Below the pieces are notes generated by a model that was not told the origin of the DNA, did no database searches, and saw only the letters and a list, made by a program, of their open reading frames with translations. From Candidatus Aminicenantes bacterium (GTDB lineage: Bacteria; Acidobacteriota; Aminicenantia; Aminicenantales; Saccharicenantaceae): 64,000 nt of DNA. This document shows, piece after piece, positions 48,061-63,945 of the stretch. A program made the position numbers and the translations under genes. Every line of letters starts with the position of its first letter. Positions within the stretch are counted from its first letter, which is position 1. The stretch covers positions 1,156,432 to 1,220,431 of the forward strand of contig CAVRDU010000005.1 of the NCBI GenBank assembly GCA_963719985.1, written 5' to 3'.

Positions 48061-49938
48061 ATGGCCAGTAGAAATGGCTTCGATATCGTCGTCGTCGGGG
48101 CCGGCCACGCCGGCTGCGAGGCGGCCGCGGCTGCGACGGCCCTAGGGCTGCGGACCTGCCTTGTGACCATCCATCTCGAGACGATCGCCCAGATGTCCTG
48201 CAATCCGGCCATCGGCGGTCTGGCCAAGGGCCATCTCGTCCGGGAGATAGACGCTTTGGGTGGCCTGATGGGCGTCCTGGCCGACGAGACCGGCATCCAG
48301 TTCCGCCTGTTGAACAGGAGCCGGGGCGGGGCCGTCCAAGCCCCCCGGGCCCAGTGCGACAAGGCGGCCTACAGGTTGGCGATGAAGCATCGCCTCGAGA
48401 AGCTGGCTGGATTGACGGTCTTTCAAGGCATCGTCGCCGAAGTTGTCGTCAAAAAGGGCGCGGCCGCGGGTGTCCGGACGATAGATGGGATGACGATCCC
48501 GGCCAAGGCCGTGATCCTTACGCCCGGGACCTTCCTCAACGGCCTGATCCACATCGGTCTCGGCAGCTATCCGGCAGGCAGGGCGAACGAACCCCCGTCG
48601 GTCGACCTCGCGGACCAGCTCAAGAAACTCGATCTGAGGGTTTTCCGCCTGAAAACGGGCACGCCGATGCGCCTCGACAGGGAAACGATCGACTGGGCGG
48701 CGTTCACCCCACAACCGGGGGACGAAGATCCCGTGCCTTTCTCCTATCGGACGCGCGGCCCCCTTCACAACAAGGTCCTCTGCCATCTCGGCTACACCAA
48801 CGCCGCCACTCACGCCGTGATCAGGCGGAATCTCGACAAGTCCCCGCTTTACGGGGGCCGGATCAAAGGGATCGGGCCCCGGTACTGCCCTTCGATCGAG
48901 GACAAGGTGGTCAAGTTCCCGGAACGGGCCCGCCACCAGTTCTTCCTCGAGCCGGAGGGGACCGAGACTACTGAGGTTTATGCCAACGGCCTGTCCTCGA
49001 GCCTGCCCTACGAGGTCCAGCGGGAGCTCCTGGACACGATACCCGGGCTCGAGAAGGCCAAGATCCTGAGGCCGGCCTACGGCATCGAATACGACGCCGT
49101 CTCCCCCACCGAGCTTTTTCCCACGCTCGAGACACGAAAGATCAAGCGGCTCTATCTGGCCGGCCAGATCAACGGAACCTCCGGATATGAGGAGGCGGCC
49201 GCCCAGGGGCTCATGGCCGGGATCAACGCCGCCCTGGCCATCGAGAAGCGGCCGCCCTTCGTCCTGCGCCGGGACGAAGCGTATATCGGCGTCCTCATCG
49301 ACGACCTCGTTTCAACGGGCGTCGATGAGCCATATCGGCTGTTCACCTCGAGGGCGGAATACCGGCTGCTGCTGAGGATCGACAACGCCGACCGCCGCCT
49401 GATGGGCCACGGAAGGGAGCTGGGACTCATCCCCGATGCCCTATGGGCCGGATTCAGGGAGAAACAGGACCGGATCGAAAGGGCCTCGGTCTTTCTAAGG
49501 AAAACCCGCATAAAGACCGATTCGGGCGACCGCGTGACTTTGGCGGAGCACTTAAAAAAACCTGAAATAGGCCTTAGGGATGTGCTAGAATGGGGCAAGT
49601 TCCCAGGCGGGCTGAGCGAAGAAGAAGCGAGATTCCTCGAGTCGGAAACGAAATACGAAGGATATATCAGGAAACAGGAACGGGAGATCGCCAAGGCCGT
49701 GAGGACCGATTCTCTGAAGATCCCGGGCGGATTCGATTTCGGCAGGGTCCCCGGCTTGACCAGGGAAGTGACCGAGAAGCTCGAAAAGAGGAGACCGTCG
49801 AGCCTGGGCGAAGCCAGGAAGATCCCCGGGGTGACCCCGGCCGCGGTCCAGAACGTTGGGCTTTACCTCGAGATATGGCGAAGAAAGAGAGAGCCGAAGC
49901 CCCCGGTTCCACGTGAAACAGGGTCTGACGATGAATAA
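48061..49938 (+). CDS. mnmG: tRNA uridine 5-carboxymethylaminomethyl modification enzyme MnmG (GidA)
   Basis: It has an FAD-binding N-terminus ([15 protein letters not shown]) and is 625 aa. Confidence 0.95.
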
Positions 49939-50686
49939 GATCATCGCTGTCGCCAATCAGAAGGGCGGCGTCGGGAAGACGACGACGGCCATCAACCTGG
50001 CCGCATCCCTGGCCCTCAAGAACCGGCGGACGCTCCTCATCGACTTGGACCCGCAAGGCATGTCGACCCTGGGGCTGGCCAAGCCCAAGGAAGCCGGCAA
50101 GGGGATCTATCAGGCCATGATGAACGGCCGGAACCTCATGGACTGCATTGTGGGGACCGAGCTCGAAAATTTCTATCTCTCCCCCTGTTCGCCCGAGCTC
50201 TCCGGGGTCGAGGCCGAGCTCTACGCGTCCGAGCGCAGGGAGAAGCGGCTCGTCGACGCCGTCGAAAAGGCGCGCCGGTACTTCAATTTCATCCTGATCG
50301 ATTGTCCGCCTTCGCTTGGCTTCCTGACGATCAACGCGCTTTCCGCGGCGGATTCCCTGGTCATCCCCGTCCAAACGGAGTTCTTCTGCATGGAAGGCAT
50401 CCCCGACCTCTTCCAGGCTCTCGAGACGGTCCGGACCTACTTCAACCCCAGGCTGGCCATCGAAGGGATCCTGCTGACCATGTTCGACGAGCGGACGAAC
50501 CTCTCCAAACAGGTCGCCGAGGAGATCCGCAAATCCTTGAAGCACATCATGTTCGACGCCGTCATCCCGAGAAGCGTCCGCTTGGCCGAGGCGCCGAGCT
50601 TCGGCAAGCCCATCGTCCTCTACGACATCAAGTCCAAAGGGGCCGAAGCCTATCTCAATCTGGCCGAGGAGATCATCCGCCGATGA
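49931..50686 (+). CDS. parA: Chromosome partitioning ATPase ParA (Soj)
   Basis: It has the deviant Walker A motif KGGVGKTTT and is 251 aa. Confidence 0.93.
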
Positions 50687-51531
50687 GCAAGAAAGCCCTG
50701 GGAAAAGGTCTGGGGGCGTTCATCCCCGAGGAGTTCAGCATCCTGAAGGACGAGAGGTTCGCCGAACTCGACCTCGAGGACGTCAAGCCCAATCCCTTTC
50801 AACCGAGGATGAAGTTCGACGACAAAACCATCGAGGAGTTGGCCCAATCGATCCGGGAGACAGGAATAGTGCAGCCGGTCATCGTGGCCCCCGAGGAAGA
50901 CCACTACAAGATCATCGTCGGAGAAAGGCGGTGGAGGGCCGCCCAGAAGGCCGGCCTGCGCAAGATCCCCGTCCTCATCCGGAACATCCCCAAGGAGAAA
51001 CAGCTCGAGGTCTCGCTCATCGAGAACATCCATCGCGAAGAGCTCAACGCCTTGGAGATCGCCCAGGCCTATCAGCGGCTCATCGACGACCACGGCTACG
51101 CCCAGCACGAGCTGGCCGACAAGGTCGGCAAGGACAGGAGCTCGGTAGCGAACTACCTCCGGCTCCTCAAGCTGCCCCAGGAGATCCAGGACCGCCTGAC
51201 GGGCGGCGAGATCACCATGGGGCACGCCCGGGCCCTTCTCGCTTTGGAGGACACGGCGACGCAGCTCTACTGCTGCCGTCAGATCATCGACCGCAGCCTG
51301 TCCGTCCGCAACGCCGAGGCCCTGGTCAATCGGCTCAAGAAAAGGGCCCCGAGGACGCAGAGGAGCCTCTCCGATCCAGACCTCCACGCCCTGCAGGAAG
51401 AGATGCTCAAGATCCTGGGGACGAAAGTCCTGGTCGCGGGCAGCCGAAGCAAAGGCGTCGTCAAGATATTTTATTTCTCGCTGGACGACCTCAACCGGAT
51501 CTATGACCGGATCAAAGGAGAAAGCCCATGA
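50683..51531 (+). CDS. parB: Chromosome partitioning protein ParB (Spo0J)
   Basis: The ParB box (IVGERRWRAAQKAGL) and an HTH are present. Confidence 0.93.
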   Translation: MSKKALGKGLGAFIPEEFSILKDERFAELDLEDVKPNPFQPRMKFDDKTIEELAQSIRETGIVQPVIVAPEEDHYKIIVGERRWRAAQKAGLRKIPVLIRNIPKEKQLEVSLIENIHREELNALEIAQAYQRLIDDHGYAQHELADKVGKDRSSVANYLRLLKLPQEIQDRLTGGEITMGHARALLALEDTATQLYCCRQIIDRSLSVRNAEALVNRLKKRAPRTQRSLSDPDLHALQEEMLKILGTKVLVAGSRSKGVVKIFYFSLDDLNRIYDRIKGESP

Positions 51532-51923
51532 AAGACAGGCCGCGGGAGCTCAACGAGACCAAGCTGGCCGGACTGATCGACATGGAGTCGGAGTTCAACG
51601 GCGATCTCACCTTCAGGGGATCGTTCCGGATCGAGGGGAGCTTCAAGGGCACGATCAACTCGGACTCCCTGCTCGTCGTCGGCGAGCGGGGCAAGGTCGA
51701 GGCCGACGTCAAAGTCGGCCAGCTCGTCATCAACGGCGAGATCCGCGGCACCCTCCAGGCCGCCGAAAGGATCGAGGTCCACAACAAGGGCCGCGTCTTC
51801 GGGACGCTTCTCACGCCGACTCTCGTCGTCGAAGAGGGGGCCTATCTCGAAGCGAGCTGCCAGACCAAGGGCGCGGCCAAGCCGTCGGCCGCGCCGCCGG
51901 CCAAGGAGCCGGGTCAGTCCTGA
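51528..51923 (+). CDS. Bactofilin (DUF583 polymer-forming cytoskeletal protein)
   Basis: It has the repetitive beta-helical pattern of bactofilins ([46 protein letters not shown]). Confidence 0.8.
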
Positions 51924-51974
51924 GTCGTTCATCTTCTCGGCTGCGCAACGGATATCGCTCACTGCTTTTCTCCG

Positions 51975-52003
51975 CTTGAGCCCGGCGCGGCGGCGGGATA
52001 TAA
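51975..52003 (+). promoter_or_regulatory. Sigma70-like promoter for pyrG (TTGAGC, 17-nt spacer, TATAAT) with a GC-rich discriminator
   Basis: The -35 element TTGAGC lies at 51975-51980 and the -10 element TATAAT at 51998-52003, followed by CGGGGCG. Confidence 0.5.
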
Positions 52004-52035
52004 TCGGGGCGAATCGATCCAAGGACCTTACGTTC

Positions 52036-53678
<1,643 letters not shown>

Positions 53679-53699
53679 CTCCCGGCCAAGGAGGAAGAC

Positions 53700-55067
53700 G
53701 TGGACATCAACGCCAAGATCTTCCGGGAATACGACATCCGCGGCATCGTCGGCCAGGACCTGGACGAAGAGGCCGTCGAGGTCCTCGGCCGGGCCATGGG
53801 CACGTTCTTCCTCGGCCGCGGCCAGAAGACGGTCTCTCTCGGCCAGGACTGCCGCCTGAGCTCGCCCGGCTTCGCCCGGGCCCTGACGACAGGCCTTCTT
53901 TCCACGGGCTGCGACGTCGCGCCGCTCGGCGTCGTCCCCACGCCGCTCCTCTACTTCTCCGTGTTCCACAAGGGGATGCCGGCCGGGGTCATGATCACCG
54001 GATCGCACAATCCGCCCGAGCACAACGGCTTCAAGATGATGTCCGGCCACGACACGCTCTACGGCAAGACGATCCAGGCCCTCTACGAGATCGTCCGCAA
54101 GGGCGTCTTCCCGAGGGGCGAGGGCCGGGTCGTGCCGCTCGACGTCGTGCCCGAATACATGGACTACGTCGCCGCGAACGTCAGCTTCGCCCGGCCTGTC
54201 AAGGTCGTCGTCGACTCGGGCAACGGCACGGGCGGGGCCGTGGCCGTGCCGCTCTTGCGGCGGATGGGCGCCGAGGTCATCGACATCTTCACCGAGCCGG
54301 ACGGCCGGTTCCCCAACCACCATCCGGATCCGACGCTCCCCGAGGCCATGGAGAAGCTCATCGCCAAGGTCCGCGAGAGCCGGGCCGAGCTCGGCATCGC
54401 CTATGACGGCGACGCCGACCGGATCGGCGTCGTCGACGACGAGGGCCGGATCATCTGGGGCGACCAGCTCCTCATCGTCTTCGCCCGGGACATCCTGCCG
54501 TCGCGCCCCGGCGCCGCCGTCATCTCGGAGGTCAAGGCCTCCCAGGTGCTCTACGACGAGGTCGCCAGGCTCGGCGGGAAGCCGATCATGTGGCGGACGG
54601 GCCACTCGCTGATCAAGAAGAAGATCAAGGAGGAGGACGCGCCGCTCGCCGGGGAGATGAGCGGGCATATCTTCTTCAACGACCGCTGGTTCGGCTTCGA
54701 CGACGCCATCTACGCCTCGGCCCGGCTGCTCGAGATCCTGTCCCGCTCGAAGGACAGGCTGTCGACGATGATGGCCGGGCTGCCCAAGACCTATTCGACC
54801 CCGGAGATCCGCATCTACGCCTCCGACGAGGTCAAGTTCAAGATCGTCGACGAGGTCCGCCGCGAGCTCGCCGCCCGCGTCCCGGTCATCGACATCGACG
54901 GCGTCCGGGCCAACTTCCCCAAGGGCTGGGGCCTCGTCCGGGCCTCGAACACCCAGGCCGTCATCGTCATGCGCTTCGAGGCCGCGACCGAAGCCGACCT
55001 GGCCGCGATCCAGAAGGAGGTCCGGGGCGTTCTCCAGAAGGTCATCAACCGGCTCGGGGCGGCATGA
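53700..55067 (+). CDS. Phosphomannomutase/phosphoglucomutase
   Basis: It has the active-site TGSHNPPEHNGFK motif and is 455 aa. Confidence 0.9.
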   Translation: MDINAKIFREYDIRGIVGQDLDEEAVEVLGRAMGTFFLGRGQKTVSLGQDCRLSSPGFARALTTGLLSTGCDVAPLGVVPTPLLYFSVFHKGMPAGVMITGSHNPPEHNGFKMMSGHDTLYGKTIQALYEIVRKGVFPRGEGRVVPLDVVPEYMDYVAANVSFARPVKVVVDSGNGTGGAVAVPLLRRMGAEVIDIFTEPDGRFPNHHPDPTLPEAMEKLIAKVRESRAELGIAYDGDADRIGVVDDEGRIIWGDQLLIVFARDILPSRPGAAVISEVKASQVLYDEVARLGGKPIMWRTGHSLIKKKIKEEDAPLAGEMSGHIFFNDRWFGFDDAIYASARLLEILSRSKDRLSTMMAGLPKTYSTPEIRIYASDEVKFKIVDEVRRELAARVPVIDIDGVRANFPKGWGLVRASNTQAVIVMRFEAATEADLAAIQKEVRGVLQKVINRLGAA

Positions 55068-56152
55068 AGGCGCGGGACGTTCGGGCCGTCATCCTGGCCG
55101 GGGGCCGGGGCACGCGGTTCTGGCCCCTGGGCCGGGAGTCCAGGCCGAAGCAGTTCCTCCGCATCGCCGGCCGCGATCCCATGGTCGTCGAGACCGTCCG
55201 CCGCATCCGGCCGCTCGTCCCGTCCCGGCGGGTGACGCTCGTTGCCGATGCCGCCCAGACCCGCCTGGCCCGAAAGCTCCTGCCGCGCCTTCCCAAGTCG
55301 AGCTTTCTCGTCGAGCCCCTGGCCCGCAACACGGCCCCGGCGCTCATGCTGGCGACGGCCCGCGTCTGGCTCGACGATCCCGAGGCCGTCGTGGCCGTGC
55401 TGCCCGCCGATCACCTCATCCGTGACGAACCGCGGTTCCTGCGGGCGCTCCGGGCCGCCGTCGAGGCGGCCGCGCGCGAGGACGCCCTGGTCACCTTCGG
55501 CATCCCGCCGACCTATCCCGCGACGGGATACGGATACATCCGCCACGACCGGGACAAGGGCCGCCGGATCGGCGGGGCCGTCTTCTATCCCGTCAGAGCG
55601 TTCAAAGAGAAACCGAACCTGGCCCAGGCCGACGAATACCTGGCCTCAGGCGACTACGCCTGGAACTCCGGCATGTTCGTCTGGCGGGCCGAGGTCTTCG
55701 CCGAGACGCTGGCCGTCTCGGCCCCCGAGCTCAGGCCGGCCTGGAACGCGATGGTCAAGGCCCTGCGCTCGGGCGGGGCGCCGAAGCTTCGGGCGGCCTT
55801 CGCCCTGGCCCCGGCCCTGTCCATCGACTACGCCCTCATGGAAAAGGCCCGCCGGGTCCTCGTCGCCGACGGGAACTTCGGCTGGTCGGACGTCGGCGCC
55901 TGGTCGACGCTCCTCGAGGTCTGGCCCCGGGACCGCGACGGCAACGCCGTCCGAGGCGAGACGCTGGCCGTCGACGCCAAGAACTGCCTCGTCTGGAACC
56001 CGGGCCGGCTGACGGCGCTCGTCGGCGTCCGCGACCTCATCGTCGTCGACACCGGGGACGCCCTGCTCGTCTGCGACGCGGCCCTCGACCAGAGGGTCAA
56101 AGAGGTCGTCGAAGCCCTGAAGAGAAAGAAAAAGCTCGGGAGATACGTCTAA
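55064..56152 (+). CDS. Mannose-1-phosphate guanylyltransferase
   Basis: The N-terminus carries the nucleotidyltransferase motif ILAGGRGTRFWPL. It is 362 aa. Confidence 0.88.
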   Translation: MKARDVRAVILAGGRGTRFWPLGRESRPKQFLRIAGRDPMVVETVRRIRPLVPSRRVTLVADAAQTRLARKLLPRLPKSSFLVEPLARNTAPALMLATARVWLDDPEAVVAVLPADHLIRDEPRFLRALRAAVEAAAREDALVTFGIPPTYPATGYGYIRHDRDKGRRIGGAVFYPVRAFKEKPNLAQADEYLASGDYAWNSGMFVWRAEVFAETLAVSAPELRPAWNAMVKALRSGGAPKLRAAFALAPALSIDYALMEKARRVLVADGNFGWSDVGAWSTLLEVWPRDRDGNAVRGETLAVDAKNCLVWNPGRLTALVGVRDLIVVDTGDALLVCDAALDQRVKEVVEALKRKKKLGRYV

Positions 56153-56180: not shown

Positions 56181-57702
56181 ATGAAAAAGCGTATCCTGGT
56201 TCTCGCCCTGGCGGCGGCCGTCGTCGCGGCCTTCGCCCTGGCCGGCGACGTCACCCTGGACGTCAAGGAACATGTGCTCGGGAACGGCATGAAGATCCTG
56301 ATGATCCCCAAGCCGGGCGTCCCCCGCGTCGTCTGTCACATCTACTTCAAGGTCGGCTCGATCAACGAGCGCCCGGGCATCACCGGGAGCGCCCACGTCC
56401 ACGAACACCTGATGTTCAAGGGCACCGAGGTCATGGGAGTCACGGACTACGCCGCGGAATCCAGGATCGACGCCGAGATCGACAAGCTGATGGGCCAGAT
56501 CTACCGCGAGCGGTTCTGGAAGGGGAACGGACGACGAGGCCAAGATCGCGGCCTGGCAGAAGAAGGTCGACGAGCTGGTCCAGGCCCAGAAGGCCTACAT
56601 CATCAAGGACGACCTCTGGACCCAGTACATGAAGAACGGCGGCACCGGCCTCAACGCCTCGACCAGCCAGGAGACGACCGGCTACTACGTCACCCTGCCC
56701 TCGAACAAGGTCGAGCTCCAGATGCTGATGGAGTCCGACCGGATGATGAACGCCCGCTTCCGCGAGTTCTACTCCGAGAAGGACGTCATCATGGAGGAGA
56801 GGCGCCTCAGCGAGAACCAGCCCGGCTTCTTCTTCAGCGAACAGGTCCAGGCCGCCTTCTACACGGCCTCGCCCTACCACTGGGGCGTCATCGGCTGGAT
56901 GGACGATCTCAGAAAGATGACGAAGGAGGACCTCGTCGCGTTCCACGACACCTACTACGTCCCGAACAACGCCGTGGCCATCTACGTCGGCGACTTCGAT
57001 CCCGCGGCGATCACGGCCATGGCCGAGAAGTACTTCGGCCGCATCCCCAAGGGCCCGGACCTCGAGCCCGTCCGGACGGGCGTCCCGGCCCAGTTCAGCG
57101 AGAAGAGGTTCTACGGCGAGGGACCGGCGCCGACGAGCCTGCAGATGATGTTCCACATCCCGCCGGACGGCGACCCGGACACGGCCGCCCTCGGTGTCCT
57201 GGCCAGCACGCTGGGGTCGGGCGGAGGCGGCGGCTTCCGCGGTGGCCGGGGCGGCGGCGGCGGATCGGGCCGGCTTTACAACAGCCTCGTCCGCGACAAA
57301 CAGCTGGCCGTCAGCGCCTCGGCCTCGAGCCGGGCCCAGTGGTACGTCGGCGCGTTCCAGTTCAGCGCGACGCCGCGCTTGGACAAGGGTGTCAAGCCCG
57401 AGGACCTGGAGAAGGAGATCTGGGCCGAGATCGAGAAGGTCAAGAAAGAGGGCCTGACCGACGAAGAGATCCAGATGGCCAAGAACAGAGGCGAGGCCGC
57501 CTTCATCCGTAGTCTGGCCAGCGCTTCGGGCCTGGCCAGCCGGGTCGGCCGGGCCGACCTCATGCGCGGCTGGCGGTCCATCCTGACCGACCTCGAGGAC
57601 CTCCAGAAGGTCACGACCGACGACATCAAACGGGTCGCGGCTAAGTACTTCGTCAAGGACAACAGCCTGGCGGCCATCTATACCCGGAAATCGGGCCGGT
57701 AA
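56181..57702 (+). CDS. M16-family zinc peptidase (active HxxEH subunit); one +1 frameshift near 56527, likely an assembly indel
   Basis: It has a signal peptide and the HVHEHLMFKGT zinc motif. An extra G in WKGG shifts the frame. The downstream part is recovered in the ORF that starts at 56629. Confidence 0.85.
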
Positions 57703-57712
57703 GGAGGACGAC

Positions 57713-59179
57713 ATGAAAAAGACCGTCATCGCCATCCTGGCGCTCGCCTTCGTCTGCGCCGGCCTGGGCTTCGGCCAGGCTAAACATCCCTCCGAGCTCA
57801 AATACCCGGCCCTCAAGTACGATCCGCCCGATCCGAAGGAGTTCCGGACCGTTTACGCCGGCGGGCTCCGCGCGTATGTCCAAGAGGACCGCGACCTCCC
57901 TCTCTTCAACATCACGGCCATCGTCAATTGCGGGGACCTCAATATCCCCAAGGAAAAAGCCGGGTTGGGGACCGTCCTCGGCGACCAGCTGATCAAGGGA
58001 GGGACCGGGACGCGCGAAGGCTCGACCATTCAGGAGAGGCTCGATTTCCTCGGCGGCTCGCTCAGCTTCAATGTGGGCGAGAGGACCTCGACCCTGAGCT
58101 TATCGGTCCTGAGCAAGGACTTCGACGAGGGCCTGGCCCTCTTCTTCGACGTCCTCAGGAACCCGGCTTTCCGCGAGGAGCCGCTGCAGCTGGCCAAGGC
58201 CCGGTTCGTCGAACAGCTCCGGCAGGCCAACGACAACCCCGGCACGGTGCTCAGCCGGGAATACGAGAAGCTCCTCTACGGGGACAACGTCCTGACCTGG
58301 CAGCCGACCAAGGCCACGTACGAGGGCATAACGGCGGGCAACCTCAAGGCCTTCCATCTTCACTACTTCTTCCCCGAGAACATCATCCTGGCTGCTTCAG
58401 GCGATTTCTCCAAGGCCGACCTCAAGGCCAAGATCAATAAGATCGCCGCCAGCTGGAAGAATACGAAGGCCCTTCCCCCCGCCCTGCCGAAGAGCTTCCC
58501 CGAGTCCGAGCCGGGCGTCTACTTCATCCAGAAGGCCATCAACCAGGGCTATATCAGCCTGGGCCATCTCGGCCTCGAGGACACGAGCCCCGATTACTTC
58601 GCCGTCCAGGTCATGAACTTCATTCTCGGCGGCGGCAGCTTCACCTCGCGGATCACGACCAAGGTCCGATCGGACGAGGGGCTGTCCTACAGCCAGGGCA
58701 GCCGGTTCAGCTATCGCTGGGGCTTCCCGGGCACGTTCTCCGGCTACGTCCAGACGAAATCGTCGACCGTCGGCTACGCCATCTCGCTCATCCTGGCCGA
58801 GTTCGACCGCATCCGCAAGGAGCCGGTGTCGGACGCCGAGATGGAAACGGCCATCAACTACTATCTCGAGAGCTTCGCCGACGGCTTCCAATCGCCGCTC
58901 CAGACCATGATGAGCTTCGCCAACCTGGAGATGACCGGCAAGCCGATGGACTACTACAAGACCTACCGGTCGAAGATCCAGGCCGTCACCAAGGCCCGGA
59001 TCCAGGAGGTGGCGCGGAAATACATCCGCCCGGACAAGGCCGTCATTTCGATCGTCGGCGACTTCGAGCCTTGTAACAAGGGAGGGGACAAGTGGGCCGG
59101 TCCGCTCGAAAGACTGGGCAAGCTCCACCGGATCAGCCTGACCGACCCGATGACCGGACAGGAGATCAAGACCCCGTAG
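57713..59179 (+). CDS. M16-family peptidase-like protein (no HxxEH; probable non-catalytic partner subunit)
   Basis: It has a signal peptide and an M16 fold-like sequence. It is 488 aa. Confidence 0.8.
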   Translation: MKKTVIAILALAFVCAGLGFGQAKHPSELKYPALKYDPPDPKEFRTVYAGGLRAYVQEDRDLPLFNITAIVNCGDLNIPKEKAGLGTVLGDQLIKGGTGTREGSTIQERLDFLGGSLSFNVGERTSTLSLSVLSKDFDEGLALFFDVLRNPAFREEPLQLAKARFVEQLRQANDNPGTVLSREYEKLLYGDNVLTWQPTKATYEGITAGNLKAFHLHYFFPENIILAASGDFSKADLKAKINKIAASWKNTKALPPALPKSFPESEPGVYFIQKAINQGYISLGHLGLEDTSPDYFAVQVMNFILGGGSFTSRITTKVRSDEGLSYSQGSRFSYRWGFPGTFSGYVQTKSSTVGYAISLILAEFDRIRKEPVSDAEMETAINYYLESFADGFQSPLQTMMSFANLEMTGKPMDYYKTYRSKIQAVTKARIQEVARKYIRPDKAVISIVGDFEPCNKGGDKWAGPLERLGKLHRISLTDPMTGQEIKTP

Positions 59180-59195
59180 CTCTCATAGAGAACAA

Positions 59196-61787
59196 ATGAC
59201 CGATCCCGAATATTCCGGCGGCGTCGTCCGCGAGCTGGAGCGGCGCTTCCGCGTCGCGGCGCTCTTCCGGCGCTTCCGCGTTCGGCGGCACGAGCCGATG
59301 CAGGTCCTCGAGTACGACGCCCGGGGCGTCTGGCCGCCGCGCCCGGCCCGGCTCAATCTGTCCGTCGAACGGCACGTCGGCGGAGGATTCGCGGGCCAGG
59401 TCTACAAAGTCCGGGTCCTCGATATAGACGCGCCGGAGGGGCCCCTCGTGGGCCTCGAGCGGGGAGGGACGTATGCCCTGAAGGTCCTGGTCCCCGTTTC
59501 GGGCTTCGGGCGCTTCATCCGGAACCTCCTCTACGGCCTCGGCTTCCAGGCCGCCTTCGCCCCCCAGGTCAATCCGGACGCGGCCCGGGCGGGGGCCCTG
59601 TGGCAGAAGCTCATCCGCCGCGGGGCGCGGGAGCGGCTGGGATCGGAGCGGGCCGTGGTCGACGTCCTGGCCACCCTGGTCGACCCGATACTCGGCAGCT
59701 GCGGCGAGATCAGCGAGTGGGTGGACGGCCGGCTCTGGCGCTACGAGGTCGACGACGACCTCTTCGCCCGGCTCGGCTGGAAGCCCGGCCGGCCCGCCAA
59801 GGGCCTGGGCTCGCCGGAGTACAGGGCCAAGCGGGCCTTCATGAGGGACCTCGTCGGGCTCATGCGCGACATGGGCGCCGAGGAGCTCGCCCGCCAGTAC
59901 GAATGGTGGACGATGAAGAGCCAGCCGAACGCCCTCAAGCGACTGGAACACGACGGAGATCCGGACCTCGGACTTGTTGCCGTCGACTTCCGGGCCGGGA
60001 TGGCCCTGTTGCCCTTCCTGCCCCAATGCCCCGCCGACTTCAAGCTGATCCTCCGGGGCATCGGCCGCGGCAGCCTGGTCCAGTTCGACCGGGGCGACCT
60101 ACGCAAGCTCGAGGCGTACGCCGCCGCGCGGCCGGGGCTTTTCGGCGACATGACCGCCACTATCGAGGAGCTTAAAAAAGCCGACGGAGCCTATCGGGAC
60201 TCACTGCCCGACGTCGCCCATCACCATGTGCGGCTCCTCGCGGCGCCGCGGCTCTGGACGGCCATCCACGCCGCCTGGGTCCGGGGGTGGGAGATCCGGA
60301 ACATGGCCGACGAGCGAGCGGCGGCGGCCCTCGGCCGGAGCCGCCTCGCGGCGCTCCTCTTCGTCGGCCTCGGGCTCCTGCCTCTCCTCACGCCTGTCCT
60401 GTTCCTGCTCCGCTTCCCCGGCCGGTCGGCCGGCCTCTGGCTTCTGTGGCTCGCGCCCCTCCTGGGCCCCTTCGTCCGCCGGCTCTGGGGCCGGGGGGAC
60501 GTCAGGCGGCATGTCGCCGCCATCGTTACGAAGGGCGGCTATGTCGGCCGGGCCTTCCGCGGCCACGTGGCCGAGGCCCTGGTCGGGTGGCACAGGTCGG
60601 GCCGGGTGAACGACAAGAGGACCCTGGCCATCGCCGAAAGGCCCTGGCTCTACCTGCTCAACCGGCCGTTGGCGCTCCTCCCGCCGGGCCTGCACCGATT
60701 CCTGACGGACAAGGCCTATTTCAAAGAACGGCTCCACAGCATGTTCGTCAAGCCGTTCCTGCTCTACTTCAAGCCGTCGGTCCGCGCCGAGTGGCTCCGC
60801 GACATGGTCGAAGAGGGCCGCAAGAACCGCATGCTGAGCCCGGAGGAGGCGGAGCGGATCCTGGCCCAGATCGGCGAGCCCTACATCCAGAAGTACCTGA
60901 AGAGCCTGGCCGTCCACATGGCCACGCTGTTCGTCTCGGAGACGGTCTTCCTGACGATCGCCGCGATCTATGTCCTGGGACACCCCGAGTTCGGCTGGGC
61001 CGAGGCGACGGCCCGGGCCGCGCTCATCATCGGCGCGTTCAACCTCCTCCCGGTCTCTCCGGGCTCGCTCATCCGGGGATTCTATGTGCTGGGCCTGGGC
61101 GTCAAGGAGAGGAGCTTCAAGGACTACCGGCTGGCCCTGCCGGTCAGCTTCTTCAAGATCATCGGCTACCTGGCCTTCCCGCTCCAGATGGCCTATCGCT
61201 TTCCCGAGCTGGCCCGGTTCATGGCCGCCCATTGGGCCACGGAAGCCGTCCACATCATCCCCGTCTTCGGCGAGCGGGGCGCCTGGCTCGAACATGCCGT
61301 CTTCGACGCCTTCTACAACTATCCGCTGAGCCTCGGCATAAGGATCAGGAAGCGGGACGACCTCGCGGCGGCGAACAAACCCCGGTGGTGGGCCGTCCCG
61401 GCGACCGCGATCATCGGCGCGCTCTTCGTCACGCTGGCCGACTTTCTCTTCGTCCGGTCCGCCGGGAGGGTCCCGGCCCTCAAGGACATCTGGTGGGCCG
61501 TCTTCCTGGCCCCGATCGGGGCGGGGTTCCTGGCCTCGCTCTGGTCGCGGCGGAAAAAGATGGGGAGGAGGGTCGCGGCCGGGATCCTGGCCGGCGCGCT
61601 CGTCGGCCTAGGCTACGGTCTCGTCAACGCCTTCCTGACGCCCCTCGTCCCCGGCCTGGCCGCCGCGGCCGGAGAGACCGTAGCGAACGGCTCCCCGGCC
61701 CTGGCCATCCTCTGGAAGACCTTCATCTTCGCCCTGCTGGCCATCCCCGGCGCCTTCGTCGCCGAGACCCGCCCGCCAGGTGGATAA
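59196..61787 (+). CDS. Large membrane protein with an N-terminal UbiB/ABC1-like atypical kinase domain
   Basis: It has a GGGFAGQVYKV Gly-rich loop, YALKVL (a VAVK-like motif), an EISEWVDGRLW motif resembling the ABC1 E-W-I-D-G motif, and then more than 10 predicted TM helices. It is 863 aa. Confidence 0.7.
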   Translation: MTDPEYSGGVVRELERRFRVAALFRRFRVRRHEPMQVLEYDARGVWPPRPARLNLSVERHVGGGFAGQVYKVRVLDIDAPEGPLVGLERGGTYALKVLVPVSGFGRFIRNLLYGLGFQAAFAPQVNPDAARAGALWQKLIRRGARERLGSERAVVDVLATLVDPILGSCGEISEWVDGRLWRYEVDDDLFARLGWKPGRPAKGLGSPEYRAKRAFMRDLVGLMRDMGAEELARQYEWWTMKSQPNALKRLEHDGDPDLGLVAVDFRAGMALLPFLPQCPADFKLILRGIGRGSLVQFDRGDLRKLEAYAAARPGLFGDMTATIEELKKADGAYRDSLPDVAHHHVRLLAAPRLWTAIHAAWVRGWEIRNMADERAAAALGRSRLAALLFVGLGLLPLLTPVLFLLRFPGRSAGLWLLWLAPLLGPFVRRLWGRGDVRRHVAAIVTKGGYVGRAFRGHVAEALVGWHRSGRVNDKRTLAIAERPWLYLLNRPLALLPPGLHRFLTDKAYFKERLHSMFVKPFLLYFKPSVRAEWLRDMVEEGRKNRMLSPEEAERILAQIGEPYIQKYLKSLAVHMATLFVSETVFLTIAAIYVLGHPEFGWAEATARAALIIGAFNLLPVSPGSLIRGFYVLGLGVKERSFKDYRLALPVSFFKIIGYLAFPLQMAYRFPELARFMAAHWATEAVHIIPVFGERGAWLEHAVFDAFYNYPLSLGIRIRKRDDLAAANKPRWWAVPATAIIGALFVTLADFLFVRSAGRVPALKDIWWAVFLAPIGAGFLASLWSRRKKMGRRVAAGILAGALVGLGYGLVNAFLTPLVPGLAAAAGETVANGSPALAILWKTFIFALLAIPGAFVAETRPPGG
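61667..61777 (+). repeat. Direct repeat DR1 (111 bp): the functional 3' end of the 59196-61787 gene
   Basis: It is 108/111 identical to 62655-62765. Confidence 0.8.
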
Positions 61788-61980: not shown

Positions 61981-62487
61981 ATGGAAAAGGCGCTTCTGAT
62001 CATCGAGGAGATGACCCGCCTGGGGGTCATCAGGGCCTATGCCATCGGAGGGGGGGTCGCCGCCACGTACTATATCGAGCCCGTCTTGACCTACGATCTC
62101 GACATCTTCTTCATTCCGGTCAAGTCGGGGTTCGACGAGCTGAGCCCGGTTTATGACTTCGCCCGCAGCCGTGGTTATGTCGAAGAGGCCGAGGCCCTGG
62201 TCATCGAAGGGTTCCCCGTCCAGTTCATCCCGGCCTACAACGATCTCGTTCGGGAGGCCGTCACGAACGCGGCGACACTGGCCTACCGCGGCGTCCTGGC
62301 CAAGGTCGTCAGAGCCGAATACCTGGCCGCCATCGCCATGCAGACGGGGCGAGCCAAGGACCGGGAACGGGTCGTACGCCTCCTGGACGGCGACGCCGTC
62401 GACAGGGGCATGCTGGCCGACCTTCTTGAGAGACATGGCCTGGCGGAAAAGCTCAAAAAGCTCGAAGGCGGGACCGATGAAAAGTGA
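61981..62487 (+). CDS. Nucleotidyltransferase-fold protein (minimal NTase motif hG[GS]-x9-13-DhDh), hypothetical
   Basis: The segment AIGGGVAATYYIEPVLTYDLDIFF matches the minimal NTase G[GS] ... D-x-D pattern. It is 168 aa, with its own TATAAT promoter and a GGACCGACCTCC RBS region. Confidence 0.5.
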   Translation: MEKALLIIEEMTRLGVIRAYAIGGGVAATYYIEPVLTYDLDIFFIPVKSGFDELSPVYDFARSRGYVEEAEALVIEGFPVQFIPAYNDLVREAVTNAATLAYRGVLAKVVRAEYLAAIAMQTGRAKDRERVVRLLDGDAVDRGMLADLLERHGLAEKLKKLEGGTDEK

Positions 62488-62638
62488 GTCGGCAGAAGCC
62501 GCATTCGAGAAGAAGCGCCGCCGCCGCCGCCAGTTGGCCCGATTGCCGTTCGAGAAAAAGATCGAGATCGTCGTCGAACTCCAAAAGGCCGCCGCTGGCA
62601 TCCGCAAGAACTCCGCGCATCGGATCTGGCCGCTCTAG
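62477..62638 (+). CDS. Small basic protein (53 aa) with an R-x4-H (HEPN-like) motif, hypothetical
   Basis: The peptide is MKSESAEAAFEKKRRRRRQLARLPFEKKIEIVVELQKAAAGIRKNSAHRIWPL. It overlaps the NTase stop by 11 nt. Confidence 0.35.
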   Translation: MKSESAEAAFEKKRRRRRQLARLPFEKKIEIVVELQKAAAGIRKNSAHRIWPL

Positions 62639-62654
62639 CGCCTATTCCGGGGAC

Positions 62655-62765
62655 GGCCGGAGAGACCGTAGCGAACGGCTCCCCGGCCCTGGCCATCCTC
62701 TGGAAGACCTTCATCTTCGCCCTGCTGGTCATCCCCGGCGCCTTCGTCGCCGAGATCCGTCCGCC
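62655..62765 (+). repeat. Direct repeat DR2 (111 bp): a displaced duplicate of the gene 3' end
   Basis: It is the partner of DR1 and encodes an alternative C-terminus (...LLVIPGAFVAEIRPPYS). Confidence 0.8.
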
Positions 62766-62790: not shown

Positions 62791-63945
62791 TTATCTCATC
62801 CGCCAGACGACCAGCTCCTTGTAGCCGTCCTGTCGTTCTGCGAGATGATAGATATGACCCCTTTTGGCCAGCGCGAAGAGGATGCCTTTGGATCTGCCGT
62901 AGGTCCCGTAATTGCCGAGGCTGACCCGCCCGGCGAAACCGCCGTCCTTCTCGAAAACATCGTACCAGTAATGGCCTTGCTCTCCTGATCCCTCGTAAGT
63001 CATTACGAACAGTCGGTCTTCATCATCGGCGAAGCCCATCTGAAACGGCGGGAACACCGTCGGGTATTCCACGTTGTCCCTGAACTCCTGCGGGAAATTT
63101 TCATACACCTTGACCAGGTCCTTCCGATCCTCCACCGACAGAGATACGGCCTGAAAGACTTTGCGGATGATCTTCTTCAGCTTGCCGCTCTTTTCGAAGC
63201 ACGCGACCTCATAGCCGGCCTCGCTGTTCCCATAAAAGACGTAATTTCTCGAGATGGCAAGGAGGATCGGCGCCTGAAGCGCTGGGAACCTCCGTCCGGG
63301 ACCTGGCCAAGTGCCCTTCCTTCGGCCGATCTCCTTCACGATCTCTAGATCAGGACCGCAGATGAGGATCCTCGAAATGGTCAGGCGTTCCACTGGATCT
63401 GGTTCCTGCTCGTGGGTGACGTAACGGCCGTCTCCCAGAGGGACGATCAAATAGGGCCGCCGAGATAGGGTTTTTTGCCGCAGAAAGACGCCGCTCCCGC
63501 CGAAGAACACCACCTTGCTCTGGGCACTATCCCAGGCCATGAGCTCGCCGCTCGTTTCGAAATAGGCACTGGTCAAGAGCCGGACCTCACCGGGCCCCTG
63601 GCCGGAGCGTCCGAAAGCGGACAGAAAGACGCCGGCCGGGCTGAACTTGAAGAAGTGGGCATCGTTGGACGATTGGCTCCAGACGAGGATGTTGCCGGCC
63701 GCGTCGACGTCGAAGGCCGCCGGATCGGAGAGACCACGCTGGACGAGGTCGGTTGAAGAAAGGTCGATCACCGCTTCCCGCCGCAATTCGAAGATGCGCG
63801 GAGGTGACGAATGATCGAGCCCCGGATCGTTCAAGACGATCTCGACGCCATCCTCCACGGAACGCACGACCGAGCTCTCTTTTTGCCGGCAACTGGTGAT
63901 CGCGAGGATCAGGACGAGGGGAATAACGCGGGCCAAACGTTTCAT
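62791..63945 (-). CDS. Lipoprotein, predicted beta-propeller (6-bladed TolB-like), hypothetical
   Basis: It has a signal peptide with an LAITSC lipobox and is 384 aa. Confidence 0.6.
   Translation of the reverse strand: MKRLARVIPLVLILAITSCRQKESSVVRSVEDGVEIVLNDPGLDHSSPPRIFELRREAVIDLSSTDLVQRGLSDPAAFDVDAAGNILVWSQSSNDAHFFKFSPAGVFLSAFGRSGQGPGEVRLLTSAYFETSGELMAWDSAQSKVVFFGGSGVFLRQKTLSRRPYLIVPLGDGRYVTHEQEPDPVERLTISRILICGPDLEIVKEIGRRKGTWPGPGRRFPALQAPILLAISRNYVFYGNSEAGYEVACFEKSGKLKKIIRKVFQAVSLSVEDRKDLVKVYENFPQEFRDNVEYPTVFPPFQMGFADDEDRLFVMTYEGSGEQGHYWYDVFEKDGGFAGRVSLGNYGTYGRSKGILFALAKRGHIYHLAERQDGYKELVVWRMR

Follow-up and report, generated by a model that had tools for sequence, protein, structure and literature searches.

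Gene X of Aminicenantes: a highly divergent protein-kinase-like domain fused to a membrane domain of an unnamed family

The subject of this report is gene X (59196–61787, + strand), which lies in a 64-kb window (the whole stretch of DNA analysed, 64,000 nucleotides) from a Candidatus Aminicenantes genome and encodes an 863-residue protein with a divergent protein-kinase-like (PKL) domain followed by a membrane domain of an unnamed family. A preliminary description of this DNA had cast X as a UbiB/ABC1-like kinase fused to a transporter-like domain, and as the third member of a trio with two M16 peptidases encoded just upstream. Our analyses favor a different account, in which X is an inner-membrane protein with a kinase-fold module that binds nucleotide and either switches or powers a new membrane core; we place the probability of this reading at roughly 45%. 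The kinase-fold domain would reside in the cytoplasm, bind nucleotide and perhaps hydrolyze it, and switch or energize the membrane core (residues 562–725), to which it is tethered by a hydrophobic anchor followed by a basic helical bundle. The core itself would carry out the primary activity, for example the movement or handling of a lipid or other small compound. X would be neither a UbiB/ABC1 protein nor a classical phosphotransferase, and would act independently of the neighboring M16 peptidases.

Residues 1–372 (59196–60311; this and all further features of X are on the + strand) are predicted to fold as a very divergent PKL domain. The full-length AlphaFold2 model, built from an alignment of 106 sequences, has a predicted local distance difference test (pLDDT) score of 90.5 and a predicted template modeling (pTM) score of 0.86. 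Foldseek comparison with the PDB returned nothing at E ≤ 1e-3, and the 50 best matches, which start at E 2.5e-3, all come from protein kinases or choline kinase. At the level of the model, structure comparison thus bears out the bilobal kinase fold expected of a PKL superfamily member. The earlier proposal of a kinase-like domain is in this respect upheld as to fold. As X appears to lack a signal peptide, the domain is probably cytoplasmic.

Conservation was counted over 106 relatives of X at 28–83% identity, and twelve residues of the domain are identical in all of them: G62, G64, G67, V69, K96, W175, Q234, W237, Q243, N245, D264, and G268. Several fall within motifs that had been quoted correctly before (GGGFAGQVYKV at 62–72, YALKV at 93–97, and EISEWVDGRLW at 171–181). 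The Gly-rich loop G62-G-G64-F-A-G67 (59379–59396), with its invariant glycines, sits between model strands 50–63 and 68–78, and K96 of YALK (59481–59483), the candidate VAIK-type β3 lysine, lies in strand 92–97. The hinge reads E174-W175-V-D-G. A long helix (207–226) precedes the segment at the catalytic-loop position, QYEWWTMKSQPN (residues 234–245, 59895–59930; Q234-Y-E-W237-W-T-M-K-S242-Q243-P-N245), in which Q243 and N245 are kept. A short strand follows and then D264-F-R (59985–59993), the putative DFG-type metal-binding aspartate. N245 and D264 are 19 residues apart, the former before strand 246–249 and the latter after strand 260–262. These equivalences to kinase motifs were drawn from motif order and secondary structure, not from residue-level superposition.

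Counting back from N245, the position of the HRD aspartate corresponds to residue 240, which is methionine in X and hydrophobic but variable among relatives (C/L/F/M), and the catalytic-loop lysine position corresponds to S242. No D....N pattern occurs in residues 1–380. Around the same loop, E236, S242, and D298 are near-invariant. The two candidate α-C helices (103–117 and 127–147) carry conserved R109, W136, Q137, and R141, and neither holds an invariant glutamate. As judged from alignment and model, the domain keeps its Mg-ATP ligands (the Gly-loop, K96, N245, and D264) yet is without the phosphotransfer aspartate and lysine. This combination, with the Mg-ATP residues at 106/106 across the full identity range and positions 240 and 242 non-catalytic, is one support for a nucleotide-driven switch or motor.

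The rest of X had been described as more than ten transmembrane helices without family, and the second half of that statement stands: neither Pfam nor NCBIfam matches it. The helix number lies at the upper end of the data, with seven segments passing a strict hydropathy cut-off and about 9–12 potentially membrane helices in the AlphaFold2 model. The part opens with a hydrophobic helical hairpin, the putative membrane anchor (residues 383–432, 60342–60491), seen by hydropathy and as model helices 383–404 and 412–432. More than 75% of this stretch is covered in only 18 of the 106 relatives, and most have a single helix at its position in the alignment (L043, for example). Next comes a basic helical bundle (residues 433–561, 60492–60878; 24 Lys and Arg) of modeled helices, soluble-looking and probably cytoplasmic, in which R437, H439, W465, H500, R501, D505, R530, and W533 are conserved. 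The conserved membrane core (residues 562–725, 60879–61370) has P619, P622, R627, G657, G692, and P710 in all 106 relatives. Its motifs are EPYIQKYLKSLAVH, P619-x-S-P622-G-S-x-x-R627, G657, and P689-V-F-G692-E-R-G695-x-x-L-E699, and it has no detectable relatives. Four further hydrophobic helices (residues 733–858, 61392–61769) form an accessory extension that is present in 55 of the 106 relatives and absent in 51, with no column conserved at 85% or more.

The membrane part was compared with known transporter and flippase folds (MOP/MurJ, ECF S-component, ABC permease, and Na+/H+ exchanger) for a global match. Its structural matches are weak and generic, and the model of this domain alone with which they were sought is mediocre (pLDDT 80, pTM 0.55); the label "transporter-like" used earlier is not confirmed by them. 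Two candidate identities for the membrane part were rejected. The P-x-S-P-G-S loop, considered as the mark of a flippase-like (LPG_synthase_TM) or UppP-type domain, found no profile support. The name UppP/BacA, which JGI gives to a single homologue (P0061) among the 120 listed, is matched by no BacA/UppP profile in X or in 30 close relatives.

Three short relatives (P0171, P0176, and P0189; 480–530 residues) bear on the division of labor between the two parts. They have a degenerate Gly-loop and no N245, and P0176 additionally lacks K96 and D264. The activation segment and the anchor helix are missing in all three, and most of the helical bundle is gone. They nonetheless retain P619, P622, R627, G657, P689, G692, G695, E699, and P710. 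Since the kinase motifs have degenerated here and those of the core are nearly unchanged, the short relatives suggest that the membrane core carries the primary function, with the kinase-fold domain as a regulatory or energizing add-on.

The same proteins, by tolerating the loss of these motifs, lend something to the view that the N-terminal domain is a dead pseudokinase. In that case it would not bind nucleotide, and its only role would be that of a scaffold on which the membrane domain docks or dimerizes, much like the pseudokinase of MviN (Rv3910). The missing catalytic aspartate and the want of an invariant α-C glutamate fit that view as well. However, in scaffolds of the pseudokinase type the Gly-loop, Lys, Asn, and Asp are usually free to drift, whereas in X these motifs are fixed in 106/106 relatives down to 28% identity, which argues for selection on nucleotide and metal binding. 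We therefore regard a pure scaffold as unlikely.

Fixed ligands could also belong to a working enzyme. X might be a genuine kinase of small molecules or lipids, or else some other ATP-dependent transferase (an AMPylase, for instance), that uses a non-HRD base, with the membrane domain binding a membrane-embedded or envelope-precursor substrate and presenting it to the kinase-fold site. The invariance of the Gly-loop, K96, N245, D264, Q234, W237, and Q243, along with near-invariant E236, S242, and D298, speaks for such an enzyme. Known PKL enzymes such as WaaP and KdkA act on lipopolysaccharide sugars and lipids. X follows genes for a phosphomannomutase-type protein (PGM) and a ManC-type nucleotidyltransferase in 41 of the 65 Aminicenantes loci counted below, comes after kdsB/A/D/C-PGM-ManC in one locus (L087), and comes after pgpA in another (L088). 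PKL lipid kinases have moreover been proposed in bacteria (bioRxiv 10.64898/2026.09.18.752743). On the other side, the equivalents of the catalytic-loop Asp and Lys are both gone, the branch with degenerate kinase motifs and an intact core would be odd if kinase chemistry were central, and the sugar and lipid neighbors are not conserved outside Aminicenantes. We consider an enzyme of this kind possible, if on the unlikely side.

The reading of X as a kinase-fold switch or motor on a membrane core draws further support from its being a self-contained gene whose neighbors differ between lineages, and from an M16 linkage that weakens as relatives become more distant. Several observations weigh against it. 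The unbroken conservation of the Mg-ATP residues is also compatible with a real enzyme that has an unconventional base, which could be a lipid or sugar kinase, an AMPylase, or an ATPase. An active ATP site without an invariant α-C glutamate would be unusual. Transport by the membrane part is a guess, its structural matches being only weak and generic, and the upstream PGM and ManC genes could reflect a real link to envelope-sugar metabolism as opposed to plain synteny. A bolder form of the idea is that the family forms a new class of membrane machine, in which a kinase fold devoid of phosphotransfer chemistry but still binding Mg-ATP drives or gates a hitherto unseen membrane fold through nucleotide binding or hydrolysis, as in a translocator of lipids or envelope precursors. 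This is a long shot; if true, the motor of a transporter would be a kinase fold in place of an ABC or P-type ATPase.

Membership of X in UbiB/ABC1 was rejected on profile, motif, and structure tests. UbiB-type nucleotide loops are Ala-rich instead of Gly-rich, and the loop of X is Gly-rich with its three glycines invariant. The hinge, which had been likened to an ABC1 motif, resembles Hanks kinase hinges such as MEYVDG of PknB, and it is thus not specific to ABC1. No ABC1 (PF03109) or other kinase Pfam match was found in X (E ≤ 0.1) or in about 50 relatives (30 at E ≤ 10 and 20 at E ≤ 0.01), and hhalign against Escherichia coli UbiB gave a probability of 0.4%. The HxDxxxxN loop is likewise missing (no H.D....N in residues 1–380). 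The KxGQ motif in the N-terminal extension is invariant in the UbiB/ABC1 family (bioRxiv 10.1101/149823), and no K.GQ occurs anywhere in X. The UbiB/ABC1 assignment made earlier has accordingly been dropped, and X should not be annotated under that name.

X and its relatives stand apart in sequence space. X itself has no Pfam match at E ≤ 0.1 and no NCBIfam match at E ≤ 10. Against PDB sequences, phmmer with X gave no match at E ≤ 10 beyond coiled-coil noise, and hmmsearch with a profile of the 106 relatives likewise returned only coiled-coil noise. The 30 close relatives scanned against Pfam at E ≤ 10 gave scattered noise and no kinase family, and the 20 distant ones gave no match at E ≤ 0.01. 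A word-indexed search found 2951 homologues; the 120 of them that were listed run mostly to about 860 residues, a few truncated ones being shorter, and carry no Pfam domain. A wider superfamily was sought by exhaustive profile search of 1.84 billion representative proteins and rejected, as only 488 matched, and the 20 of these that were scanned, the distant relatives just named, have no Pfam domain. So small a number from such a database indicates that the family is isolated. X is almost always labeled "hypothetical protein", and neither Pfam nor NCBIfam has a family name for it.

Relatives of X occur in at least 347 GTDB species-representative genomes, most of them from the uncultured Aminicenantes. 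The best 80 of these are nearly all labeled Aminicenantes or unclassified, at 48–82% identity, and the named relatives come from Aminicenantes metagenome-assembled genomes (MAGs). A search seeded by a distant member reached relatives at 28–32% identity, a few of them labeled Chloroflexota, Microgenomates, Hydrogenedentes, Planctomycetota, Cloacimonetes, or Armatimonadetes. Common in Aminicenantes, the family has a scattered distribution among other phyla. One relative, P0141, has 1216 residues and combines the kinase-fold domain and the membrane core with about 450 extra C-terminal residues, in which more hydrophobic helices and an Ala/Leu-rich soluble stretch are found, without a Pfam match.

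Along the + strand, the window carries parA, parB, a bactofilin gene, pyrG, the PGM gene, the ManC gene, M16-A (56181–57702), M16-B (57713–59179), and X in that order. The three last genes are thus direct neighbors on one strand, as described before, with gaps of 10 nt between M16-A and M16-B and 16 nt between M16-B and X. Given these short gaps, the three genes are likely co-transcribed in this genome. Peptidase_M16 and Peptidase_M16_C domains match both M16 proteins (on both fragments of M16-A; at 1.2e-07 and 1.2e-31, respectively, in M16-B). M16-A, the active-type subunit, has its HxxEH motif as HVHEH at residue 72, and a scan for H..EH found none in M16-B, the non-catalytic-type subunit; the contrast between the two had been recognized already. 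Judged from the sequence, both N-termini look like signal peptides. Adjacent genes, an M16 and an M16_C domain in each protein, and HxxEH in just one fit the pattern of heterodimeric M16B peptidases.

Conservation of this arrangement was assessed by tblastn of the window's neighbors against 80 Aminicenantes loci, in which X was at least 60% identical in 20 and less than 60% identical in 45. M16-B lies directly upstream of X (<400 nt) in 18/20 of the closer and 6/45 of the more distant loci, and within 2.5 kb upstream in 20/20 and 12/45. No M16 gene is found within 6 kb of X in 26 of the 45 distant loci, a situation seen in none of the 20 close ones. ManC is present within 6 kb upstream in 20/20 and 21/45, and aspS follows downstream on the other strand in 18/20 and 31/45. 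In five more distant relatives (the L085, L086, L090, P0294, and P0322 loci), three of which are named or inferred as belonging to other phyla, no M16 gene occurs near X. Some loci have ManC and then X directly, with an M16 pair of 35% identity downstream on the other strand.

The neighbors of X elsewhere are diverse and include pilY1 upstream (L004), genes for an AAA_23 protein and SpoU, MFS and beta-lactamase genes, a CN-hydrolase with an M55 peptidase, and a DUF7670 gene overlapping the end of X. With adjacency falling from 18/20 to 6/45 to 0/5, M16-M16-X was rejected as a conserved module; the three genes are not co-conserved over the range of the family. As the M16 linkage fades with distance and unrelated genes replace it, the trio is lineage-specific synteny inside a conserved housekeeping block.

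The preliminary description had further suggested that X, as a UbiB/ABC1-type kinase, might act together with the M16 pair in the processing and export, or the modification, of an envelope substrate. The close spacing on one strand, adjacency in 18/20 close relatives, the kinase-like fold of the N-terminal domain, and a loose analogy to the membrane-anchored UbiB ATPases (bioRxiv 10.1101/149823) all speak for such a trio. Yet every UbiB-defining feature tested failed, and most relatives below 60% identity, along with 5/5 of the more distant ones, have the M16 pair at another place or not at all. Prediction also puts the membrane between the parts, with the kinase-fold domain probably in the cytoplasm and the M16 proteins apparently secreted. 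We find this proposal very improbable. The M16 pair instead looks like a separate secreted heterodimer, probably co-transcribed with X in this sub-lineage alone, and it should not serve to infer the function of X.

The gene order shared across the phylum (49856–56152 in the window; loci L005–L084) is parA-parB-bactofilin-pyrG-(kds in some)-PGM-ManC-(M16 pair)-X, and aspS-hisS lie downstream in convergent orientation. At the P0322 locus, where X is 43% identical, bactofilin-parB-parA again lie within 2 kb, and the genes on either side of X encode an MscS-like protein (overlapping X by 4 nt) and a cNMP-binding protein. In L088 (about 50% identity), a gap of 3 nt separates the end of pgpA, for phosphatidylglycerophosphatase A (221–736), from the X gene that follows it; this single case is the only lipid-enzyme neighbor seen. 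PGM/ManC, kds, pgpA, the MscS-like and cNMP-binding genes, aspS, and parAB-bactofilin were all considered as functional clues, and none holds across lineages. These other neighbors are treated as phylum-level gene order or anecdotes.

The M16 pair is present as genes, as reported before, but M16-A is not one open frame in this assembly, a point the first reading had missed. Relative to its orthologue, there is a 1-base frameshift at about 56531–56533, in a GGGG run; tblastn with the L001 orthologue places residues 1–117 in frame 3 and residues 118–504 in frame 1. Upstream, pyrG (CTP synthase) has two frameshifts relative to orthologues at about 52364–52471. Sister long-read MAGs of the same group (L013 and L023) are split at other positions. 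Because pyrG is essential and the sister assemblies break at different sites, the shifts in both genes are probably sequencing or assembly errors of the long-read indel type, and a real pseudogene or a programmed frameshift in M16-A was judged unlikely. Apparent pseudogenes near X should be annotated with this probable source of error in mind.

The 3′ end of X is involved in a 112-nt direct repeat, whose copies are 97% identical and 988 nt apart. Copy 1 (61666–61777, +) is the in-frame end of X (…AETRPPGG*), and copy 2 (62654–62765, +) codes for a different C-terminus (…AEIRPPYS*) that has a stop of its own. The pair looks like the trace of a ~0.99-kb insertion that brought or duplicated the last ~37 codons. 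Within the inserted segment are open reading frames of 168 residues (61981–62487, +) and, overlapping it, 53 residues (62477–62638, +; basic), neither with a Pfam or NCBIfam match at E ≤ 1. Their arrangement recalls a small two-gene cassette, for instance a toxin–antitoxin pair. In most relatives aspS is next downstream of X on the other strand, unlike in this window with its insertion. Here its place is taken by a gene (62791–63945, −) for a 384-residue protein whose N-terminus looks like that of a lipoprotein (…LAITSC) and which weakly matches DUF5128, a six-bladed beta-propeller (E 1.9e-05).

The X family adds a strongly divergent branch to the PKL superfamily, in which all ATP and Mg ligands appear fixed and both phosphotransfer residues gone, an unusual combination. 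This branch is physically linked to a membrane domain without recognizable relatives, a new fusion partner. If the kinase-fold domain does regulate or power the core, X would tie nucleotide state to a membrane process by a new route.

Among known systems, the M16 pair resembles heterodimeric M16B peptidases in having one HxxEH subunit and one inactive subunit, encoded side by side with signal-peptide-like N-termini; it differs in that the active subunit is frameshifted in this assembly and the pair is not consistently linked to X. X shares with UbiB/ABC1/COQ8 proteins a membrane-attached kinase-like fold and a G-Q-V-[HY]-[KR] stretch after the nucleotide loop that is only superficially alike. 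A non-protein-kinase role is also plausible for X: COQ8 is an ATPase activated by membranes, and UbiB proteins are membrane-anchored ATPases (bioRxiv 10.1101/149823). The Hanks-type bacterial Ser/Thr kinases YabT (6g4j), PpkA (5hnv), and PknB (1mru) align structurally with X at 12–16% identity, with no detectable sequence similarity (neither a Pkinase Pfam match nor a PDB sequence match). In contrast to them, X has T-[CLFM]-x-S in place of the HRD aspartate and catalytic-loop lysine, an extra helix between β3 and the α-C position, and a polytopic membrane domain rather than a single transmembrane helix with sensor domains. Among the closest known systems is the MviN/MurJ–pseudokinase fusion of mycobacteria (Rv3910; kinase-homology domain 3uqc).

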